From a virus, in UHGV virus genome UHGV-0166683: a stretch of DNA of 15,589 nucleotides; one strand, written 5' to 3'. The notes beneath the pieces are model-generated. The model was not told the origin of the DNA. It worked only from the letters and a program-made list of their open reading frames with translations, and did no database searches. This document shows positions 3,063 through 15,510 of the stretch, in pieces (position 1 is the first letter of the stretch; each line of letters begins with the position of its first letter). Made by a program: the position numbers and the translations under genes.

Positions 3063-3452
3063 TCAGGCGGCTGCACCCGCCGGTTTCTCGTACTTACTGA
3101 TAGTGATCTCGACCTTCCCTTCCGGGATAACCGGTCCCCACTCCACCAGCATTCTTTTCACCTGACTGTCGTCTTCCCACACACCCGCGTGGGTCAGGGC
3201 GTCAAACAGCGCCTTGTTATAGTTGTCCAGATCGCGGATCCGGTTATCCGGAGGAAACAACACGATCTCCACTGAAGCTGGTGCCGACGTTGGTTTCGGC
3301 AGACGGCGTAACTGCTCAATGATGGCGGCACACGCCGCGCCCTGGAATTTACGCCCCGCCGCGCTTATCAGGCTCTTACCTGCAAAAGCCCCTTTGTTGG
3401 GGTGTCGCCAGTACGTGTTCACGCTGGGGGGAAACGGCAGGATCAGCTTCAT
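3063..3452 (-). CDS. rusA: Holliday junction resolvase RusA (crossover junction endodeoxyribonuclease)
   Basis: 129 aa. MKLILPFPPSVNTYWRH ... DLDNYNKALFDALTHAGVWEDDSQV matches the RusA signature (PPS.N.YWR, DxDN acidic catalytic motif, DAL...G...DD.Q). ATGA start/stop overlap with the upstream gene. Confidence 0.85.
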   Translation of the reverse strand: MKLILPFPPSVNTYWRHPNKGAFAGKSLISAAGRKFQGAACAAIIEQLRRLPKPTSAPASVEIVLFPPDNRIRDLDNYNKALFDALTHAGVWEDDSQVKRMLVEWGPVIPEGKVEITISKYEKPAGAAA

Positions 3453-3775
3453 ACTTTCAGGCCCCTCTCATGTAACCAGTGGGCTGCACGCAGCCTGGCG
3501 TTTTCCTCACCAGCAAGCAGTGCGCGGATAATCCCGGCCACCTCGCTGTCGTCGTCCTTCACCGCGGTATGAAGAGTTATCCCCCGGGCCACGCCACGCT
3601 TTATCGTGATGACGCCTTTTTTCTCCAGTGCGCGAAGATGCTCCACCGCTGCATTCACTGAACGGTATCCCAGCATGGTTGCCACCTCCTGATTGGTTGG
3701 CGGGAAGCCACGTTCTTTCTGGTAAGAAATCAGCATATCCAGCACCTGCTGCTGGCATTGAGTTAACGTCGTCAT
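3449..3775 (-). CDS. LexA N-terminal DNA-binding-domain-only protein (winged HTH, no S24 peptidase domain)
   Basis: 108 aa. MTTLTQCQQQVLDMLISYQKERGFPPTNQEVATMLGYRSVNAAVEHLRALEKKGVI aligns by eye with the LexA N-terminus ([56 protein letters not shown]). The protein ends before any Ser/Lys protease domain. ATGA overlaps at both ends. Confidence 0.7.
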   Translation of the reverse strand: MTTLTQCQQQVLDMLISYQKERGFPPTNQEVATMLGYRSVNAAVEHLRALEKKGVITIKRGVARGITLHTAVKDDDSEVAGIIRALLAGEENARLRAAHWLHERGLKV

Positions 3776-4425
3776 GCCGCCATCTCCCTGACCAGTTTTT
3801 CCGCCTGCTGGCGAACCTGCGCCAGAAAGGCCTCACCACATGCCTCAAGTTCATCGCGCCCGATGTAGCTGATTGCCGATCCCTTCCAGGTCTTGTCGAA
3901 AACAGCAATAGCACCAGCGAAGAAAGCACCTGTCGGCACCTGCTTCTCGTCCTTCGGTATAAACCAGGCAGGTAGTTCAAAACCAATACGCCCGCGAATA
4001 AAAGCAATATGATCTGCATCTTCCGGCCACCACACTTCGCTGGTAGCTGCTTTGATCAAGAAAACATAGCGCCCGCCTTTATCACGCATGGCACTGGCAT
4101 GCTTCATGATGTAACGCATGCCGGTGATGTATTGCCCCTCATGCTGACTGGCGCGGCTGTATGGGGGATTACCAAAGGCAGCACCTTTAAGCTCCGCAAG
4201 ACGTTCTGACCAGTCATGCGCCAGCGCGTTGTCTTCCGCCGTGTAATACGCGGCACATTTGGCGTTATCACCGTCAGTGAACAGATCCAGAACAAACGGG
4301 CCAAACAGGGTGTTAATTCCCCAGAAAATGTTGTCCGGCGTGCGCCACTGATCGCCCACTTCCTTCAGTTCATGGGCTGGTTTGTTCCGCAGTTCCACCA
4401 GCGCCTGCCAATATTTATTACTCAT
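3772..4425 (-). CDS. Phage DNA N6-adenine methyltransferase (Dam-like, YfdM-like)
   Basis: Contains the FGNPPY catalytic motif of N6-adenine methyltransferases. Start chosen at ATG 4425-4423, which overlaps the upstream stop (TAATG coupling); the six-frame ORF extends to 4458 (11 extra codons), so the start is ambiguous. Confidence 0.8.
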   Translation of the reverse strand: MSNKYWQALVELRNKPAHELKEVGDQWRTPDNIFWGINTLFGPFVLDLFTDGDNAKCAAYYTAEDNALAHDWSERLAELKGAAFGNPPYSRASQHEGQYITGMRYIMKHASAMRDKGGRYVFLIKAATSEVWWPEDADHIAFIRGRIGFELPAWFIPKDEKQVPTGAFFAGAIAVFDKTWKGSAISYIGRDELEACGEAFLAQVRQQAEKLVREMAA

Positions 4426-4919
4426 TAAGCCCCCACGTAATTCCCTGACAGATACCACTCATCACCCGATACAGCGCACTTGCTGCTTTTCCGTAAGCAC
4501 CGCTCACGGCGCGCCAGAAAATTGTTTCGTTCTGGCTGGGAGTGGCTTTCACGGAATGCCGCCATCCACACGGTTGCAGCACGACGGTATAAGCCCCTGG
4601 ACTCCAGTTCTTCAGCCTGGCGGGTCAGGCACAAAATTACCCGTGGATCGTTAGTGCCGACATAGAAATTGCGCACAGGTCTGGTTTCACGAACTGGTTG
4701 TGGTTCCGGCTCCTGCGCTCTCTCAGTCAGGCGCGGGAAATGTCTGCGTGTATCTCCTTCACAACGGTGAGCCACACGCCCACTCTGACGTAACTTGCTT
4801 GCTGACTGCAGAACGCGCTGCCGTGAGTAATCTGCAAAAGCATCCGCAATGTCTCCGGAAGTACACCCCGGATGGGCTTCAATGAATTTCTGAACGTCAT
4901 TTAACAGACTCATGATCAC
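4425..4919 (-). CDS. Putative regulatory protein, YfdN-like, with PerC-like C-terminal region
   Basis: 164-codon ORF (GTG at 4919 or ATG at 4913). C-terminal segment LTRQAEELESRGLYRRAATVWMAAF resembles the PerC/Pch-family core as I recall it. GTGA overlap with the replication gene stop. Confidence 0.55.
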   Translation of the reverse strand: MIMSLLNDVQKFIEAHPGCTSGDIADAFADYSRQRVLQSASKLRQSGRVAHRCEGDTRRHFPRLTERAQEPEPQPVRETRPVRNFYVGTNDPRVILCLTRQAEELESRGLYRRAATVWMAAFRESHSQPERNNFLARRERCLRKSSKCAVSGDEWYLSGNYVGA

Positions 4920-5857
4920 CCCCTGAATCCTGCCGGGATCTGGCTGTAGTCCACATTGTCGTAACTGGATTTGAAGTACGGGTCTTCGCGTTTTTCGGTG
5001 TACGTGCTTACGGACGGCGATAAGCGCAGGGAAAGCTCATCCCATTTTTCCCGCAGCTTCGACGGGCTGAGCACGTTACGGCACCAGAACGGATCGCGGC
5101 TGACGCGGCTGTACATCTCGCAGATTTGTTTGTGAGTACGACCATCCTGCACACACATCAGGCGAATTTCGTTTGCCCAGGCTGTCCAGTTCGGTTCTTT
5201 GGGACGAACCACCTCGCCGTCACATTCGGCAGCCTGCTCGTACAGGGCGATGATTTTTTTCCAGAGCCACTGTGCGCAGGTCAAATCATCCTGCGTCCCC
5301 CACTGGCGCTTTTTAGGGCTGAATACAACCGCATCAGGATGGCGAGTTAAAAAATCCTGTTCAGCCGTCTGCGTGTCCGGTTGCGAAGCGTCCGGACGAG
5401 AAGGTTTTTTATCTGACGGATCATGTTTTGATTTTACTGACGGATCCCCGCCAGATTCTGACGGGTGAAAACCTGCTTTTTTGCCAGATTTCGACGCATC
5501 AAATTTTGACGGGTCAGATTTTGATGCGTCAGATTTTGACGGGTCAGAATCTGACAGTTGAGAAAATGCCGCTGCCTGAAGCTTCGCAACGTTAAGCTGA
5601 TAAACATTCGACGCATTGCGGTTACCCTGGCGACGCGCCTTACGCGTTAACCAGCCTTCTGCTTCCAGCCGTGCGATAGCCGTTCTGACGGTACTCATCC
5701 CCGCGCCAATCTGACGGGCAATGGTTTCAATTGATGGCCAGCACACACCTTCGTCATTACTGAAATCAGCCAGGCGGGCCATAATTGCCACGCTGGATAA
5801 CTTCATGCCTGATGCAGCGCAACCATCCCATACATAGCCGGTTAATTTAGTGCTCAT
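4916..5857 (-). CDS. Phage replication initiation protein (O-like; N-terminal HTH, repeat-encoded linker)
   Basis: 313 aa. N-terminal region (WPSIETIARQIGAGMSTVRTAIARLEAEGWL) is HTH-like as in phage replication initiators. A central low-complexity linker SDPSKSDASKSDPSKFDASKS is encoded by 15-bp tandem repeats. SD AGAGG lies 6 nt upstream of the ATG at 5857-5855. Confidence 0.8.
   Translation of the reverse strand: MSTKLTGYVWDGCAASGMKLSSVAIMARLADFSNDEGVCWPSIETIARQIGAGMSTVRTAIARLEAEGWLTRKARRQGNRNASNVYQLNVAKLQAAAFSQLSDSDPSKSDASKSDPSKFDASKSGKKAGFHPSESGGDPSVKSKHDPSDKKPSRPDASQPDTQTAEQDFLTRHPDAVVFSPKKRQWGTQDDLTCAQWLWKKIIALYEQAAECDGEVVRPKEPNWTAWANEIRLMCVQDGRTHKQICEMYSRVSRDPFWCRNVLSPSKLREKWDELSLRLSPSVSTYTEKREDPYFKSSYDNVDYSQIPAGFRG
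5411..5556. repeat. Iteron-like 15-bp tandem repeats inside the replication initiator gene (candidate origin of replication)
   Basis: Three tight tandem copies TTTTGACGGGTCAGA / TTTTGATGCGTCAGA / TTTTGACGGGTCAGA at 5504-5548, plus degenerate copies containing CTGACGGAT/CTGACGGGT at 5413-5421, 5437-5445, 5458-5466 and 5490-5498. Confidence 0.5.
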
Positions 5858-5866
5858 GACCGACCT

Positions 5867-6205
5867 CTATTTCCCTGAATTTACGACGAAACTGTTCGAG
5901 CGGACTGAAGCATTCATGCTCATAACCTTCGCGGAGGTAGATAACCCGTTGTGTTTCCGGTTCCCAACGAATGACTCTGACGGGCACTCCGTAGTGATCT
6001 TTGAACCAGCGGTTAACTTGTCGCAAAGGACTGCCTCCTTCTGCCGGTTGAAATCACCCACAGCCCACTCTGCAAAGCTGTGGGTTACAATTTCCCTGTC
6101 ACCTGGTACATTCACTGCATAGCAATACTCCACCTTCGCTTTTCCACCCGGAACCGGAAGCGCAATCAGTTGCGAGCGACGGTAGTGTGTTGTTAAACTG
6201 TTCAT
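5867..6205 (-). CDS. Hypothetical small protein (112 aa) between the CII-like and replication genes
   Basis: Start ATG overlaps the stop of the upstream CII-like gene (ATGA at 6202-6205) and its stop lies 9 bp before the replication gene start, consistent with operon membership. Composition is not strongly protein-like and a competing plus-strand ORF exists, so confidence is low. Confidence 0.35.
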
Positions 6206-10775: not shown

Positions 10776-11021
10776 ATGCTTCAAATGCTGACACTTGAGG
10801 AATGGGCTGCGGAAAAATTTAGGAGTAATCCTCCAAGTGTGTCCACATTGCGTCGTTATGCTAAGCAGAATTTATTTTGTCCACCAGCAATGAAACAAGG
10901 TCGACTCTGGCGAGTACGTGAGGACGCAGAGTTAGTTGGGGAATTAGTTACTCCAGTAATCAAGAAAAGTGATTCTATTATTCTGCAAAGGATTTTAAGC
11001 AATGGCAGCCAGACCACGTAA
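10776..11021 (+). CDS. xis: Excisionase (lambda Xis-like)
   Basis: MLTLEEWAAEKFRSNPPSVSTLRRYAKQNLFCPPAMKQGRLWRVREDAEL parallels lambda Xis (MYLTLQEWNARQRRPRSLETVRRWVRE..FPPPVKDGREYLFHESA). Overlaps the int start by 20 bp as in lambda. Start ambiguous among ATG 10761, 10776 and 10785. Confidence 0.75.
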   Translation: MLQMLTLEEWAAEKFRSNPPSVSTLRRYAKQNLFCPPAMKQGRLWRVREDAELVGELVTPVIKKSDSIILQRILSNGSQTT

Positions 11022-12129
11022 AAATAATGTTTCAGTACCTAACTTGTATCCGCTTTATAGTAGAAAAGTAAATAAAGTCTATTGGCGATATAAGCATCCA
11101 GTGACCGGGAAATTTCATTCGTTGGGCACAAATGAAGCTGAAGCTATTGCTATTGCCACTGAAGCTAACACTCGTCTGGCTGAGCAAAGAACCCGGCAGA
11201 TTCTAGCTATCAGTGATAGGATCGCAACCAGCAAAGGAAAAGCGATCACAACGTCAACCTGGTTAGATCGCTATCAAGCGATCCAGGATGACAGGCTCAA
11301 AAGTGGTGATATAAGACTCAACACCTATAAGCAAAAAGCTAAACCAGTATCCTTGCTCAGAGAACGAGCAGGAATGAAGTTGATCTCATCCGTTGATGTT
11401 AGAGATATAGCACAATTGCTTGATGAGTATATTGCAGCTGGACAGCCTAGAATGGCCCAAGTCGTTAGGTCTGTATTGATCGATGTGTTTAAGGAAGCAC
11501 AGCATTATGGCGAAGTTCCGCCAGGGTATAACCCTGCTCTTGCGACGAAGCAACCCAAAAGAAAAATTACCCGTCAACGCCTCAGCCTGGAAGAATGGCA
11601 AAAAATATTCGATATAGCAGACGCCAGTCATCGTTACATGGGAAATGCCATGCTCCTAGCTTTGGTCACTGGGCAGCGTTTGGGAGATATATCCAAAATG
11701 AAATTTAGTGATATTTGGGAAGATCATCTTCACGTCATTCAGGAAAAGACTGGAAGCAAAATCGCTATCCCTCTTTCTCTTCGCCTCAATGCGATTAACT
11801 GGAGTTTACGCGATGTAATAGCCCGCTGCCGTGACTATGCAGTCAGCCCATACCTAGTGCATTTTTTCCGTTCAACTTCACAAGCAGAACGTGGGGCACA
11901 GGTTAAATCCAATACATTGACGATGAACTTTAGTAAAGCGAGAGATTTAGCAGGAATTGACTGGGGTGATGGCTCACCCGCAACATTCCATGAACAAAGA
12001 TCGTTATCTGAACGCCTGTACAAGGAGCAAGGGATAGATACCAGAAAGCTACTTGGGCATAAAACACAACAACAAACCGATCGTTACCATGATGACCGAG
12101 GGAAAGGTTGGAGCAAAGTAGCTTTGTGA
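11002..12129 (+). CDS. int: Tyrosine site-specific integrase (lambda Int family)
   Basis: 375 aa. C-terminal catalytic region HEQRSLSERLYKEQGIDTRKLLGHKTQQQTDRYHDDRGKGW matches lambda Int (HELRSLSARLY ... LLGHKSDTMASQYRDDRG), including the conserved His and catalytic Tyr. Preceded by and overlapping xis. Confidence 0.9.
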   Translation: MAARPRKNNVSVPNLYPLYSRKVNKVYWRYKHPVTGKFHSLGTNEAEAIAIATEANTRLAEQRTRQILAISDRIATSKGKAITTSTWLDRYQAIQDDRLKSGDIRLNTYKQKAKPVSLLRERAGMKLISSVDVRDIAQLLDEYIAAGQPRMAQVVRSVLIDVFKEAQHYGEVPPGYNPALATKQPKRKITRQRLSLEEWQKIFDIADASHRYMGNAMLLALVTGQRLGDISKMKFSDIWEDHLHVIQEKTGSKIAIPLSLRLNAINWSLRDVIARCRDYAVSPYLVHFFRSTSQAERGAQVKSNTLTMNFSKARDLAGIDWGDGSPATFHEQRSLSERLYKEQGIDTRKLLGHKTQQQTDRYHDDRGKGWSKVAL

Positions 12130-12340: not shown

Positions 12341-13456
12341 TTAAATTAAATCAAATAGCCCATGTTCATCTATAGCCTTTGAACTAATTAAGTTCGCGGC
12401 TTCTATGTCATTGTCACTTGCCTCAGAAATAAGGAAAAATGAATCAACATGATTTTGCAAAATAATTTCCTTATACTTCTTGAGCCATTGTAATTTACCT
12501 GTAGTGAACAATACTTTACGCGGTAGCAAAATACGGCTAAAAACTGATGGAAGATACTCACTTCTATTAAATGGAATAAAAGGGTCGCCTAAAGAAAGAA
12601 TAGTTAGACGATTAAATTCACCGTGCGAATTCAATTTTTCAGCTGATTTGGCTATACCACTTGGTAAAAAAACACCTGTCTTGATACCGTTGCGTAAAGC
12701 AACAACAGCCATCATTTTATCAAAGGCAGTACCTCCAAATAATAAGGAATATCCTTTTTTAACAGAAAGATCAATAGTATCAAGAACAACTTGTTTTTCT
12801 ATATCACTTGGTGACGTGCTCGAAATTATCGAAAGATCAAAATCAGTAAATAACTGCCCAGTATAATAAAGATTTTTGCCGGTGAAAGTTGACAACTTTA
12901 AAGGAAACATTTTATCATCATGCTTAATTTCAGATACATTAAGATCTGTTAAGGATGGATAGTTAAAGTTTGGTGAGGCTTTTCCGTGTTTATTATTTTT
13001 TGATGCCTGCGGACTAAAAACTAGAATTTCATTTTTATTATTACACAGGTAATCCTGTATCATTTTTTTTACAATATCCCAATCAAGACCACCGTGACCA
13101 CAACCTAAAGCTGGCAGGGTGATTGTTTTTCCATGTTTATTATCCAAATATTTCGAGAGCCAATGCAGTCCTTTTTCGATATATTCGTACTTAGACTTAT
13201 TTCTCCAATGATCCTTGGTGGGAAAGTTTATGATTTCTATTTCCTTACCATACGTATCATTACCTTTCCAAACAGCTGGTCTTCCTGGAGATATTTCTCC
13301 TTTTTTACACAGCAATACGTATTCATTATACATTTCAGGAAACTTATTCTTAAAAGCAAAAGCAACCCCTGCCCCCATTACACCAACACAATTAACTGTA
13401 TTAATTCTAATGTCAGCAGCATAATCGAAAAAATCACCATCAACATATCTAATCAT
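12341..13456 (-). CDS. darG: DarG-like macrodomain protein (putative antitoxin; N-terminal macrodomain plus about 200-aa C-terminal domain)
   Basis: Start chosen at ATG 13456-13454 with strong SD AGGAGG (ORF extends to 13582). N-terminal region GDFFDYAADIRINTVNCVGVMGAGVAFAFKNKFPEMY ... IINFPTKDHWR ... LPALGCGHGGLDWD matches the DarG/TARG1-type macrodomain as I recall it from M. tuberculosis DarG. AT-rich gene. Confidence 0.7.
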   Translation of the reverse strand: MIRYVDGDFFDYAADIRINTVNCVGVMGAGVAFAFKNKFPEMYNEYVLLCKKGEISPGRPAVWKGNDTYGKEIEIINFPTKDHWRNKSKYEYIEKGLHWLSKYLDNKHGKTITLPALGCGHGGLDWDIVKKMIQDYLCNNKNEILVFSPQASKNNKHGKASPNFNYPSLTDLNVSEIKHDDKMFPLKLSTFTGKNLYYTGQLFTDFDLSIISSTSPSDIEKQVVLDTIDLSVKKGYSLLFGGTAFDKMMAVVALRNGIKTGVFLPSGIAKSAEKLNSHGEFNRLTILSLGDPFIPFNRSEYLPSVFSRILLPRKVLFTTGKLQWLKKYKEIILQNHVDSFFLISEASDNDIEAANLISSKAIDEHGLFDLI

Positions 13457-14163
13457 AAAACCTCCTTTGGTCAGAGTATACATCCTTATTTCTGGCTCTT
13501 CAATTCTATTGTCAAAAACTTTTACAAAGTCTGCATCAGTAAAACTGATGGCGCATTTTAAAATTAAAATCAATATGTCCATATCAAACGTTATATTTGT
13601 TATTTTTTGTATTTATTATTCATATCCATCATGTGCTATTAAATCGCCCAAAAGAACATAATAAATTATGTGCACCACTTTCTTCTTATTGAATTTTGGA
13701 TTACATTACGATCTAAATTAGATCTTTTGCCAATATCATAAACATATGCAGCAAACGTTGCAACAAGCTGTTCTCATTCTAACAGTTAGTAGAATATAAA
13801 CTCTGTAATTAGCACACTGAATTCCCTTCATCTATGAGTTACAACATCCTTTAAGTGAATAGTATTGTTAGTTTAAATCTATTAATATCATTCATAAAAC
13901 TATTTTATATAGTTAAAGTCATTATAAATCCATCTGAATATATACAGATGGATTCTGCCAATAGTCTTTGCAGGTGAAGTGCATGTTATATATTTTTTAG
14001 GGAATATATTTTCTAATTATTTCTCAGATAAAAATTTGCAGAACGAAATTACTTTACATAATACCGAATGTTACAGATTATTTTATTGCATATAAGCATT
14101 GAACTAACCACTATCACAGTGACTATGTTAATCATAAAATCTGCATCAAATTCAAAAAGCTCC

Positions 14164-15510
14164 TCATAAACTGTTCCCCTGCAATCTTTGGAGAACTTCA
14201 TCCCGGAGATCATCGATCCCGTCAGAAACCTGAGCTAACCAAACTTGACTTAATGAGCCAATATCAGCCTTACTTAGGGCTACTAACATATTGATATCTT
14301 CAGAAGATGTAACTATATCGAACAACTGATTTTTATTCCTCCCTTTAGCTACTATTTCCCCCAATAAATCATCATACGTAACTAACATCATTATTTTTCT
14401 AACTAGATCGGTTTGTATGACTGGCAGATCTTCTGTCAAAATTCGTTGTAGCATCGCAAGTGACTTCCTAGGATGCTCTCCATCTGCCTCATGCATGTAA
14501 TTATTATTCCAACGTGTTTTAGGCCCTTTGCCTATATCATGCAAATAAGCGGCCAACTCCAAAACTTCCTGATGAATAGAGTCTAATTGATAAAACTCTG
14601 GTGAATTAACTACAAGACTAGCCACTCGTCGACTATGAGAGCCAACATCTTCATTATGAGGCCCGTAGCTCGTCCCCAATCCATCGATATCTTCAAGCTC
14701 TTGGATGGAGGAGAAATTACCACGAATTGCACTTAGAGCATCACTAATACTTTGAAATTTTGGCCTCGTTTCTCGTTGAAATGAAGTTACATATTCAATA
14801 GCTTCATCAAAAAGCATTTTTAACACTACCGGTCCCGTGACTAAGGATGAGGACCAGTTTCCAGGTTGATAATAATAATGTTGAAAATCACCCTCAACAA
14901 TATTTGGTGGAACAATACCTTTGTTCTGGAAAATACTCCTCACAATATCAGACATAGAACGATTCCATGTAATTATCTGATTTATTTCGCTTAAAGAGAC
15001 ATGATCTGGCAGCAAAAGTTCTGCCATCTTTTTATGCCTCTGAGTCTCGTCAGCATAACCCCATGCATTATTATCTATGGTAGCCCAATCTAATACATCA
15101 AGCTGGTCAGCTTGAGTATTACCAGAATAAAAGTTCGGTGGATTAACTGTATTTGCGGAAGCATCTGTAAAATATGACCCATTCCTTGTTTCGAGTGATA
15201 ATATAGAAACTGAAAGATAGATAATAAATTGCTGATCTACATTTTTTTTATGAAGAACAGACAATTGCATGGGCGTTTTTTTTGCAAAATAAAAAGGAAC
15301 ATAATCATGAACACAACGACCATTCGTATTAGGCACCTGCATCACTGCCCTACGCCCCTGTATTCCTTCATCAGCAACATTCACATGTGATATACGACGT
15401 GCAATTTTCTGATTAGTCGAAAACAGCCCAGTTTCAATTATTGATTCAAGATTATCTACTGACGTAAAGTGATATGCATTTCGGTGTCTATGGTGAACAG
15501 GAACTGTCAT
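14164..15510 (-). CDS. darT: DarT-like DNA ADP-ribosyltransferase (DUF4433) fused to a C-terminal HD-phosphohydrolase-like domain
   Basis: N-terminal about 215 aa carries DarT hallmarks: YHFTSVDNLESIIETGL, HDYVPFYFAKKTPMQ, and the catalytic-Glu context KKMAELLLPDH (compare Mtb DarT HFTHVDNLPSIL, GDYVPFYFGPRSPM, RRMAEFLLRGH). C-terminal about 230 aa contains HD-domain motifs SHSRRVASL ... LELAAYLHDIGKG (HD codons at 14541-14536). AT-rich gene. Confidence 0.7.
   Translation of the reverse strand: MTVPVHHRHRNAYHFTSVDNLESIIETGLFSTNQKIARRISHVNVADEGIQGRRAVMQVPNTNGRCVHDYVPFYFAKKTPMQLSVLHKKNVDQQFIIYLSVSILSLETRNGSYFTDASANTVNPPNFYSGNTQADQLDVLDWATIDNNAWGYADETQRHKKMAELLLPDHVSLSEINQIITWNRSMSDIVRSIFQNKGIVPPNIVEGDFQHYYYQPGNWSSSLVTGPVVLKMLFDEAIEYVTSFQRETRPKFQSISDALSAIRGNFSSIQELEDIDGLGTSYGPHNEDVGSHSRRVASLVVNSPEFYQLDSIHQEVLELAAYLHDIGKGPKTRWNNNYMHEADGEHPRKSLAMLQRILTEDLPVIQTDLVRKIMMLVTYDDLLGEIVAKGRNKNQLFDIVTSSEDINMLVALSKADIGSLSQVWLAQVSDGIDDLRDEVLQRLQGNSL

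Follow-up and report, generated by a model that had tools for sequence, protein, structure and literature searches.

The 15,589-nt stretch of DNA studied here, virus genome UHGV-0166683 (hereafter the window), contains on its minus strand a gene coding for a lambda-O-like replication initiator, the middle of which is taken up by short palindromic repeats. Judging from sequence comparison, the region spanned by these repeats (positions 5399-5563) is very probably the replication origin of a lambdoid prophage, located inside its own initiator gene, with the repeats serving as iterons. The original prediction, made from the sequence of the window alone, had placed iteron-like 15-bp tandem repeats at positions 5411-5556 and had proposed that they act both as a protein linker and as the origin. 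These coordinates were found to be accurate when Tandem Repeats Finder and a weight matrix were used, the full element extending over ∼5399-5563. The dual role gained support from the comparison of homologs, namely from the linkage of the repeats to the N-terminal domain (N-domain) of the initiator, from frozen codons, from the motif occurring out of frame and from an AT-rich stretch.

The repeat element and its place in the initiator gene

The initiator is a two-domain protein of the lambda-O type, composed of an HTH_36 winged-helix N-domain, a linker of ∼65 residues and a lambda-O-like C-terminal domain (C-domain). The repeats lie mid-gene, in the DNA encoding the linker (codons 99-149). The set of units was obtained from a weight-matrix scan plus direct reading of the coding (minus) strand. 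The features of the gene, in the direction of transcription, are:

4916-5857, minus strand: replication initiator gene, lambda-O-like, an open reading frame of 313 amino acids (aa)
5573-5857, minus strand: N-terminal winged-helix DNA-binding domain (aa 1-95; Pfam HTH_36), the presumed reader of the iterons
5549-5563, minus strand: degenerate leading unit A0, TCTCAACTGTCAGAT (weight-matrix score 13.7)
5489-5548, minus strand: array A, four head-to-tail 15-bp palindromic units (tandem repeat detection, weight matrix)
5534-5548, minus strand: array A unit, TCTGACCCGTCAAAA
5519-5533, minus strand: array A unit, TCTGACGCATCAAAA
5504-5518, minus strand: array A unit, TCTGACCCGTCAAAA
5489-5503, minus strand: array A unit, TTTGATGCGTCGAAA
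5471-5488, minus strand: A6-containing spacer separating array A from site B, TCTGGCAAAAAAGCAGGT (read from the sequence)
5451-5470, minus strand: site B, TTTCACCCGTCAGAATCTGG, an isolated unit with a CCAGA-N-TCTGG palindrome (score 20.8)
5456-5470, minus strand: 15-mer unit inside site B, TTTCACCCGTCAGAA
5399-5449, minus strand: two 24-bp repeats, GATCCGTCAGTAAAATCAAAACAT and GATCCGTCAGATAAAAAACCTTCT, AT-rich candidate unwinding element
5435-5449, minus strand: unit of a 24-bp repeat, GGGGATCCGTCAGTA
5411-5425, minus strand: unit of a 24-bp repeat, CATGATCCGTCAGAT
5027-5341, minus strand: C-domain (aa 173-277), homologous to the C-domains of lambda O and phi80 gp15

At least three tight copies and several degenerate ones had been predicted; four tight units, one degenerate unit, one isolated unit and two lying within the 24-bp repeats were found. 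The tight and degenerate units of the head-to-tail group follow the consensus TCTGACSSGTCAAAA, each being palindromic. On the plus strand, exact copies of TTTTGACGGGTCAGA lie at 5504-5518 and 5534-5548, and one of TTTTGATGCGTCAGA at 5519-5533. Tandem Repeats Finder reported an array at 5485-5548 with a period of 15 (4.3 copies, 81% matches, score 86); at a period of 30 the same array gave 88% matches and a score of 100. The weight-matrix scores of array A were 17-24.6 for the coding strand; the opposite strand gave 16-19.8, and since both strands score, the array is palindromic. The element can be described as 7-8 copies of the 14-bp palindrome TYTGAC-SS-GTCARA, four or five of them placed head to tail at a spacing of 15 bp. 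Both 24-bp repeats begin with GATCCGTCAG, and each opens with a GATC site (5443-5446 and 5419-5422). A spacing of ∼33 bp recurs in homologs for the region of the spacer between array A and site B. The unit TCT GAC SCG TCA AAA of the coding strand reads SDPSK or SDASK, and the peptide encoded by the repeats is SDPSK SDASK SDPSK FDASK ... HPSESGGDPSVKSKHDPSDKK, that is, the Ser/Asp/Lys/Pro linker that had been foreseen, which is predicted to be disordered.

The clustering of the motif is marked. The pattern GAYSCRTCR matched nine times in the 15.6-kb window (1.81 matches expected), a number reached by none of 200 shuffled sequences, and eight of the nine matches fell within 5414-5545. Tandem-repeat and pattern scans revealed no second cluster elsewhere in the window. 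Stray copies of CCCGTCAGA, or of a unit-like 15-mer, were seen outside the array at 5710-5718, 5976-5984, 6039-6053 and 14218-14226; one of them falls within the sequence encoding the winged helix, where it is read in another frame (ARQIG), and the gene for a 112-aa protein upstream contains two. These could be chance matches or weak auxiliary sites.

A parallel with lambda, where the iterons lie inside gene O, had been drawn, and the alignments agree with it. In full-length BLASTP searches the initiator matched lambda O with an E-value of 7e-26, the similarity being strongest between residues 173-277 of the initiator and residues 177-270 of lambda O. In tblastn searches, the C-domain matched lambda at 39202-39495 (39% identity, 5e-19) and phi80 gene 15 (35.7% identity, 9e-20). 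The lambda record annotates four origin iterons at 39034-39118, corresponding to O codons 117-145, followed by an A-rich tract and then by the shared C-domain. The repeats of the window lie directly before this same C-domain, as do the lambda iterons, so the repeat element is positionally homologous to oriλ. By its C-domain, the initiator gene is judged to be a true relative of lambda O. The N-domain belongs to a different family: lambda O matches PF04492 (Phage_rep_O), which was not found in the initiator, whereas the latter matches PF13730 (HTH_36) at aa 23-70 (4.3e-11).

Other searches agreed with this assignment or were uninformative. The initiator protein matched phrog_391 (‘replication initiation O-like’, 8e-136), and in megablast searches of phage records the gene shared 98-99.6% DNA identity with its counterparts, annotated for replication, in phages Kati, SfII and SfIV. 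A search of the initiator against NCBIfam gave no useful family, and sequence searches of the PDB, with the single protein and with a profile, gave only marginal MarR/GntR similarity, at the N-domain. The family amounts to 2370 protein clusters at E<=1e-5, the members of which are named ‘helix-turn-helix protein’, ‘primosomal protein’ or ‘GntR regulator’ in databases, and some of them ‘Replication protein 15’.

Conservation of the repeats among homologous initiators

Homologous genes were taken from 14 phage loci and 80 genomic loci (L001-L094) covering ∼40 Enterobacterales genera; N-domain identity across the homologs aligned or fetched was 59-100%. All 87 intact homologous genes having this N-domain carried the motif in the linker, with 1-10 weight-matrix hits per gene (mode 6), and the linker held 509 of the 517 coding-strand hits and all 389 reverse-strand hits. 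The C-domains joined to this N-domain and its repeats were of the window/lambda-O type, the Phg_2220_C type (in phiNP, Flotzy and YeP1), the phiP27 type (followed by DnaC-like and DnaB-like genes) and the EKP1 type (followed by a toprim-helicase gene). The repeats appear to accompany the N-domain through at least four such C-domain swaps. An attempt to sort the C-domains by single-linkage BLAST clustering merged the types and was uninformative; it was replaced by Pfam assignments on representatives. Among motif-bearing viral contigs with enough upstream sequence, the N-domain was found upstream in 108 of 110, a count that is not independent since motif and N-domain belong to the same gene.

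The complementary case is provided by mEp460_4F5, which shares its C-terminal half with the window at 96.8% DNA identity and has an unrelated N-terminus without a Pfam match. At the same position of its gene (L013:1855-2013), 23-bp palindromic repeats, CATCGGGTCAAAGTGACCTGATG, are present in four or five copies, and after them come three A-rich repeats of 12 bp (TACAGAGAATAC-like). To judge from these sequences, this looks like a second, lambda-spaced type of origin on the same C-module. P0036, examined at the protein level only, combines the window C-domain with a divergent N-domain (∼59% identical) and a linker repeat reading VDPSN/IDPST. More distant HTH_36 initiators have palindromes of their own after the N-domain, namely three copies of GGGGCAGGAGCTGCCCC in Min27, four of TATGCCATCTGATGGCA in RAH1, and GGTCAAATTCCGACC in a Vibrio phage. 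The module junctions flank the element, the window sharing nt 2-479 of the gene with phiNP and nt 443-942 with mEp460_4F5. The N-domain and the iterons thus appear to form one specificity module, with an exchangeable C-part, which is the classical lambdoid pattern.

This pattern bears on whether the conserved DNA could be the target of another protein, such as a host factor, a repressor, a regulator of the Cro/CII type, or Dam/SeqA acting through the pair of GATC sites. The two sites are invariant and the phage has a Dam gene, and the 112-aa and PerC-like proteins encoded nearby are uncharacterised. However, the type of repeat switches with the N-domain, and not with the neighbouring genes or the C-domain; the neighbours differ among homologs that keep the same repeats; and GATC is present in only two of the 7-8 units. 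Recognition by a protein other than the initiator is for these reasons considered very unlikely.

The number of repeats in related prophages, a comparison suggested earlier as a check, ranged from two to nine units, close relatives differing by whole 5-codon units. The array was lost in frame in four variants (P0015, P0018, P0029 and P0034), which recall the known in-frame ori- deletions of lambda. Variant P0034 is widespread in Salmonella (128 contigs) and is found in a prophage remnant at icd (L216:10001-10867), where no head or terminase genes were present in the 10 kb shown. Its loss of the array fits a cis-acting origin that is dispensable in a defective prophage, although it is not a proof. 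Separately, two IMG/VR contigs (L133 and L182) have the conserved origin block but no intact in-frame N-domain: in one, a frameshift runs through the iterons, which read QILTRQNLTHQNL, while in the other the upstream part has been replaced. These are probably pseudogenes or assembly errors.

Codon usage in the repeats is strongly constrained. The Ser at position 4 of the unit is encoded by TCA in 452 of 520 cases, as compared with 17% elsewhere in the same genes, and that at position 1 by TCT in 70%, versus 11% elsewhere. Site B belongs to the DNA block that is best conserved in the family: in an alignment of 74 distinct sequences its information is ∼2 bits at every codon position, and GTTTTgACCCgtCAGAATCTGGnGGgGATCCGTCAGTAAatTCAAaacaaGATCCAtcAG is conserved at nearly all codon positions. 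In the corresponding peptide block, F[D/H]P[S/P]ESGGDPSV, the codons are TTT in 65/65 sequences, GAA in 62/62, TCT in 63/65, GAT in 65/65, CCG in 62/65 and GTA in 65/65, while the Gly codon of the spacer is free, all four codons being used. Where a residue of the block is replaced, a single base has changed and the other two of the codon are retained (TCA>CCA, TCA>TTA, GAC>CAC). The mean frequency of the majority codon was 0.88 in the block, and 0.54 in 44 conserved N-domain columns (Mann-Whitney p=4e-4); in the same sequences, invariant N-domain residues use 3.6 codons on average, and up to six. Further, in three homologs (L005, phiP27; L007, Stx2_KH16-043; L083, a Citrobacter prophage), TTTSACCCKTCAGAATCTG is present in the usual frame, as FDPSDS or FHPSDS, and a second copy follows 32 bp later in another frame, read as VLTLQNL or VFTRQNL. 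Since synonymous sites are frozen and the motif recurs out of frame, selection appears to act on the repeat DNA itself, beyond the protein. The palindrome varies chiefly at its centre (positions 7 and 9), which corresponds to the variable middle residue of S-D-x-S-K; such central variation is as expected of sites for a dimeric helix-turn-helix protein. The odd peptide repeat is explained by the need of the same nucleotides to code also for a disordered Ser/Asp/Lys/Pro linker that can be tolerated.

These data leave little room for two explanations that require no binding of the initiator to DNA. According to the first, the repeats are a mere low-complexity linker generated by slippage. The linker is indeed predicted to be disordered and, as in slippage-prone tracts, its copy number differs between close relatives. 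This explanation is however contradicted by codon usage and by reading frame: the repeats keep their synonymous sites frozen in ∼40 genera, whereas synonymous change in the adjacent N-domain has reached saturation, and an identical DNA motif is found in another reading frame in the three homologs mentioned. Further, the amino acids at the unit centre vary freely while the flanking nucleotides do not, and the units are palindromic, something a peptide repeat does not need. A slippage-made linker is thus highly improbable. The second explanation, that the palindromes are RNA hairpins of the early-right transcript serving translational or stability control, is scarcely credible. Many inverted repeats are detectable, but in 248 of 517 units palindrome positions 2/13 form a C·A combination, pairing being possible in only 50%, no compensatory pattern was seen, conservation is symmetric on both strands, and an Rfam scan of the whole window found no family.

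Surroundings of the element and recruitment of the helicase

In the family alignment, AT content peaks at 0.73 just after GTTTTgACCCgtCAGAATCTGGnGGgGATCCGTCAGTAAatTCAAaacaaGATCCAtcAG, the gene mean being 0.49. The least stable 40-bp stretch of the window gene is 5399-5438, with -47 kcal/mol as compared with a mean of -57 kcal/mol for the gene; as in lambda, it is found downstream of the iterons with respect to transcription. The two GATC sites (5419-5422 and 5443-5446), 24 bp apart, are in this AT-rich region. The Asp codon at these sites is GAT in 65 of 65 homologs, while the array units prefer GAC; most homologous loci also have a methylase nearby, and the phage of the window encodes its own Dam. 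No DnaA box was found near the element, the sole TTWTNCACA match in the window being at 13303.

Iterons of plasmids have dual roles, in initiation and in autoregulation or copy control. By analogy, the sites bound by the initiator might serve mainly autoregulation or copy control (titration, handcuffing), with strand opening taking place elsewhere in the phage genome, and the single extra copies of the motif upstream (5710-5718, 5976-5984 and 6039-6053) would suit such a role. Against it, the position of the repeats is colinear with oriλ in a homologous gene, a conserved, AT-rich and least-stable stretch adjoins them, and the window has neither another cluster of the motif nor DnaA boxes nearby. 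A mainly regulatory function is thus unlikely.

If the element is an origin, the paradigm of lambda, P22 and phi80 suggests how it would work. Dimers of the N-domain would bind the palindromic units to form an O-some-like complex, which would destabilise the adjacent AT-rich stretch 5399-5438; the C-domain and the C-terminal tail would then bring in the host DnaB helicase. Recruitment of the helicase is the weakest link of this mechanism. The extreme C-terminus of the initiator is the feature that bears on it:

4919-4945, minus strand: C-terminal tail SQIPAGFRG, 8/9 identical to the extreme C-terminus of Escherichia coli DnaT

In BLASTP comparisons only these last nine residues matched E. coli DnaT (SQIPAGFRG versus SQIPPGFRG). 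The initiator gave no hit to PF17948 (the DnaT DNA-binding domain), and PDB sequence searches gave no match to DnaT. The name ‘primosomal protein I’ or DnaT used in several phage records is not justified beyond the nine-residue tail. A GFR[GST] tail was present in 49 of the 87 homologs. Partner genes (P-, DnaC-, DnaB- or primase-helicase-like) were scored in the 0.7-1.5 kb sampled downstream of the initiator; they were found for none of 48 homologs with a GFR tail and for 17 of 38 with other tails, counts that are not corrected for shared ancestry. Tails of the HWNSPEGW or NTDW type go with P-like genes, and those of the DPHWFVGG and phiP27 types with a DnaC-like gene together with a DnaB-like one. 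In the window, no P-, DnaC- or DnaB-like gene follows the initiator, the next genes being PerC-like, Dam, LexA DNA-binding-domain-like and RusA. Because such a gene is lacking and a DnaT-like tail is present, the helicase is probably obtained through a host factor that normally recognises DnaT rather than through a phage loader, a more speculative proposal than that of the origin itself. A role for the DnaT tail was not found in a 2026 preprimosome paper or in one review.

A broader hypothesis, offered tentatively and on balance doubtful, is that the C-terminal peptide of these initiators is a swappable docking motif deciding how the helicase is loaded. IPxGFRG tails would mimic DnaT, need no phage loader and plug the origin complex into the host DnaB-DnaC machinery, and the tight 15-bp palindromes, the GATC pair and the phage Dam may add a methylation-timed control of firing. 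That tail type correlates with loader gene provides a way to find out which partner is bound by the C-terminal tail of host DnaT, so far unexplained.

Several points weigh against the region being an origin. Literature searches on iterons with SfII/SfIV/SfV, on intragenic iterons in prophages and on the motif strings found no description of this origin, or of binding or origin activity in the family. Since the repeats adjoin the coding region of the N-domain, linkage by itself would account for part of their joint inheritance. The instability of the AT-rich stretch is only moderate (86th percentile of the whole window), and no loader gene lies beside the initiator, making the steps after binding conjectural. 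The AlphaFold2 model of the initiator, built from a 16-sequence alignment, is of low confidence (mean predicted local distance difference test score, pLDDT, of 52.8; ∼30 in the linker), which also counts against it; a Foldseek search of the PDB with this model gave nothing significant, only generic winged-helix repressors (best E 0.86). Finally, the 15-bp spacing (∼1.4 helical turns) is much tighter than the 20-24 bp of lambda, and not all units may be occupied together. Speculatively, alternate units, 30 bp apart, may be occupied on one face of the helix, with which the better 30-bp periodicity agrees.

Prophage context and comparison with known systems

The window is the early region of a lambdoid prophage. 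The genes of its minus strand are, in order, Cro/YdaS-like, CII-like (PF06892), a 112-aa protein of unknown function, the initiator, PerC-like and Dam, followed by LexA-DNA-binding-domain-like, RusA, KilA-N and DUF968; an S24 repressor and an integrase (11002-12129) are encoded on the plus strand. The genes following the initiator include:

4425-4919, minus strand: gene directly after the initiator, at the position of lambda P (164 aa)
3772-4458, minus strand: phage Dam methylase gene, two genes downstream of the initiator
3449-3775, minus strand: 108-aa protein consisting of a LexA DNA-binding domain only (PF01726, 2.9e-19), a member of the early-right operon located between Dam and RusA

The 164-aa protein is PerC-like over aa 100-153; for its first 105 residues the only match is to a PHROG of unknown function. 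Beyond the integrase, the window encodes a Macro-domain protein (413 aa; 12341-13582, minus strand) and a DarT/HD-domain protein (448 aa; 14164-15510, minus strand), a pair that looks like a DarT/DarG-type ADP-ribosylation toxin-antitoxin or defence pair.

Among known systems, iteron plasmids of the RepA/π/TrfA type resemble the window in having an initiator with a winged helix, several direct repeats and an AT-rich element next to them. Their iterons, however, are usually 17-22 bp long, intergenic, ∼22 bp apart (about two helical turns) and accompanied by DnaA boxes, while the sites in the window are coding, 15 bp apart and without a DnaA box nearby; the window thus lacks the features of a plasmid-type origin. 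As in the initiator, an HTH_36 N-domain occurs together with a DnaT C-terminal motif in DopC, a domesticated O-like protein (Brézellec et al. 2017, PMC5509034). The dopC loci were reported to be devoid of iteron-like sequences and not to be origins, and they lie beside a P-like gene, dopE (same reference), whereas the initiator gene of the window has a full set of iterons, a lambda-O-like C-domain and no P-like neighbour.

Gene 18 of P22 and of phage L has distinct short repeats inside the initiator coding region that have been proposed as cognate iterons, those of phage L being six imperfect 11-bp repeats (bioRxiv 10.1101/2020.10.05.325894). The repeat sequences and the N-domains differ from those of the window, and P22 and L encode their own DnaB-type helicase (gene 12), while the phage of the window has none beside the initiator. 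With gene 15 of phi80, the product of which is called ‘replication protein 15’, the likeness is in the homologous C-domain; the phi80 N-domain was absent among the matches listed in the N-domain search (60 of 70 records). The lambda-type paradigm of initiator and iterons is also set out in the preprint just cited and in Kozłowska et al. (PMC7466680). The ‘P27’ of the latter has a lambda-type O and lambda-type iterons, and is distinct from the phiP27 L17 homolog of the present comparison.

The main comparison is with lambda itself. Besides the homologous C-domain, the window shares with O/oriλ the layout of DNA-binding N-domain, linker-encoded iterons, AT-rich stretch and C-domain, the shape of each iteron as an inverted repeat, and the position in the early-right operon after cII. 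The initiator departs from the strict lambda type in two features: its N-domain is HTH_36 (PF13730) and not Phage_rep_O (PF04492), and no P gene lies downstream. Its DnaT-like GFRG tail also contrasts with the lambda O end of the ...TDWIYGVDL type. As to the sites, lambda has four 18-bp iterons at a spacing of 20-24 bp, while the window has 7-8 sites in three sub-blocks, with 14-15-bp units abutting at 15 bp. The arrangement nonetheless follows the classic lambda plan and involves no new principle; that of the intragenic lambda origin has been textbook knowledge since the late 1970s, and the established picture of lambdoid replication is unchanged. What is added to it is an unusually compact iteron array, the lead given by the DnaT-like tail, and a concrete candidate origin of ∼165 bp, together with an iteron consensus, for a family of initiators that is very common in enterobacterial prophages and includes those of the Shigella serotype-converting phages SfII and SfIV. 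To this can be added what appears to be a clean natural case of dual coding, in which protein-binding sites in the DNA would dictate the sequence of a disordered linker.

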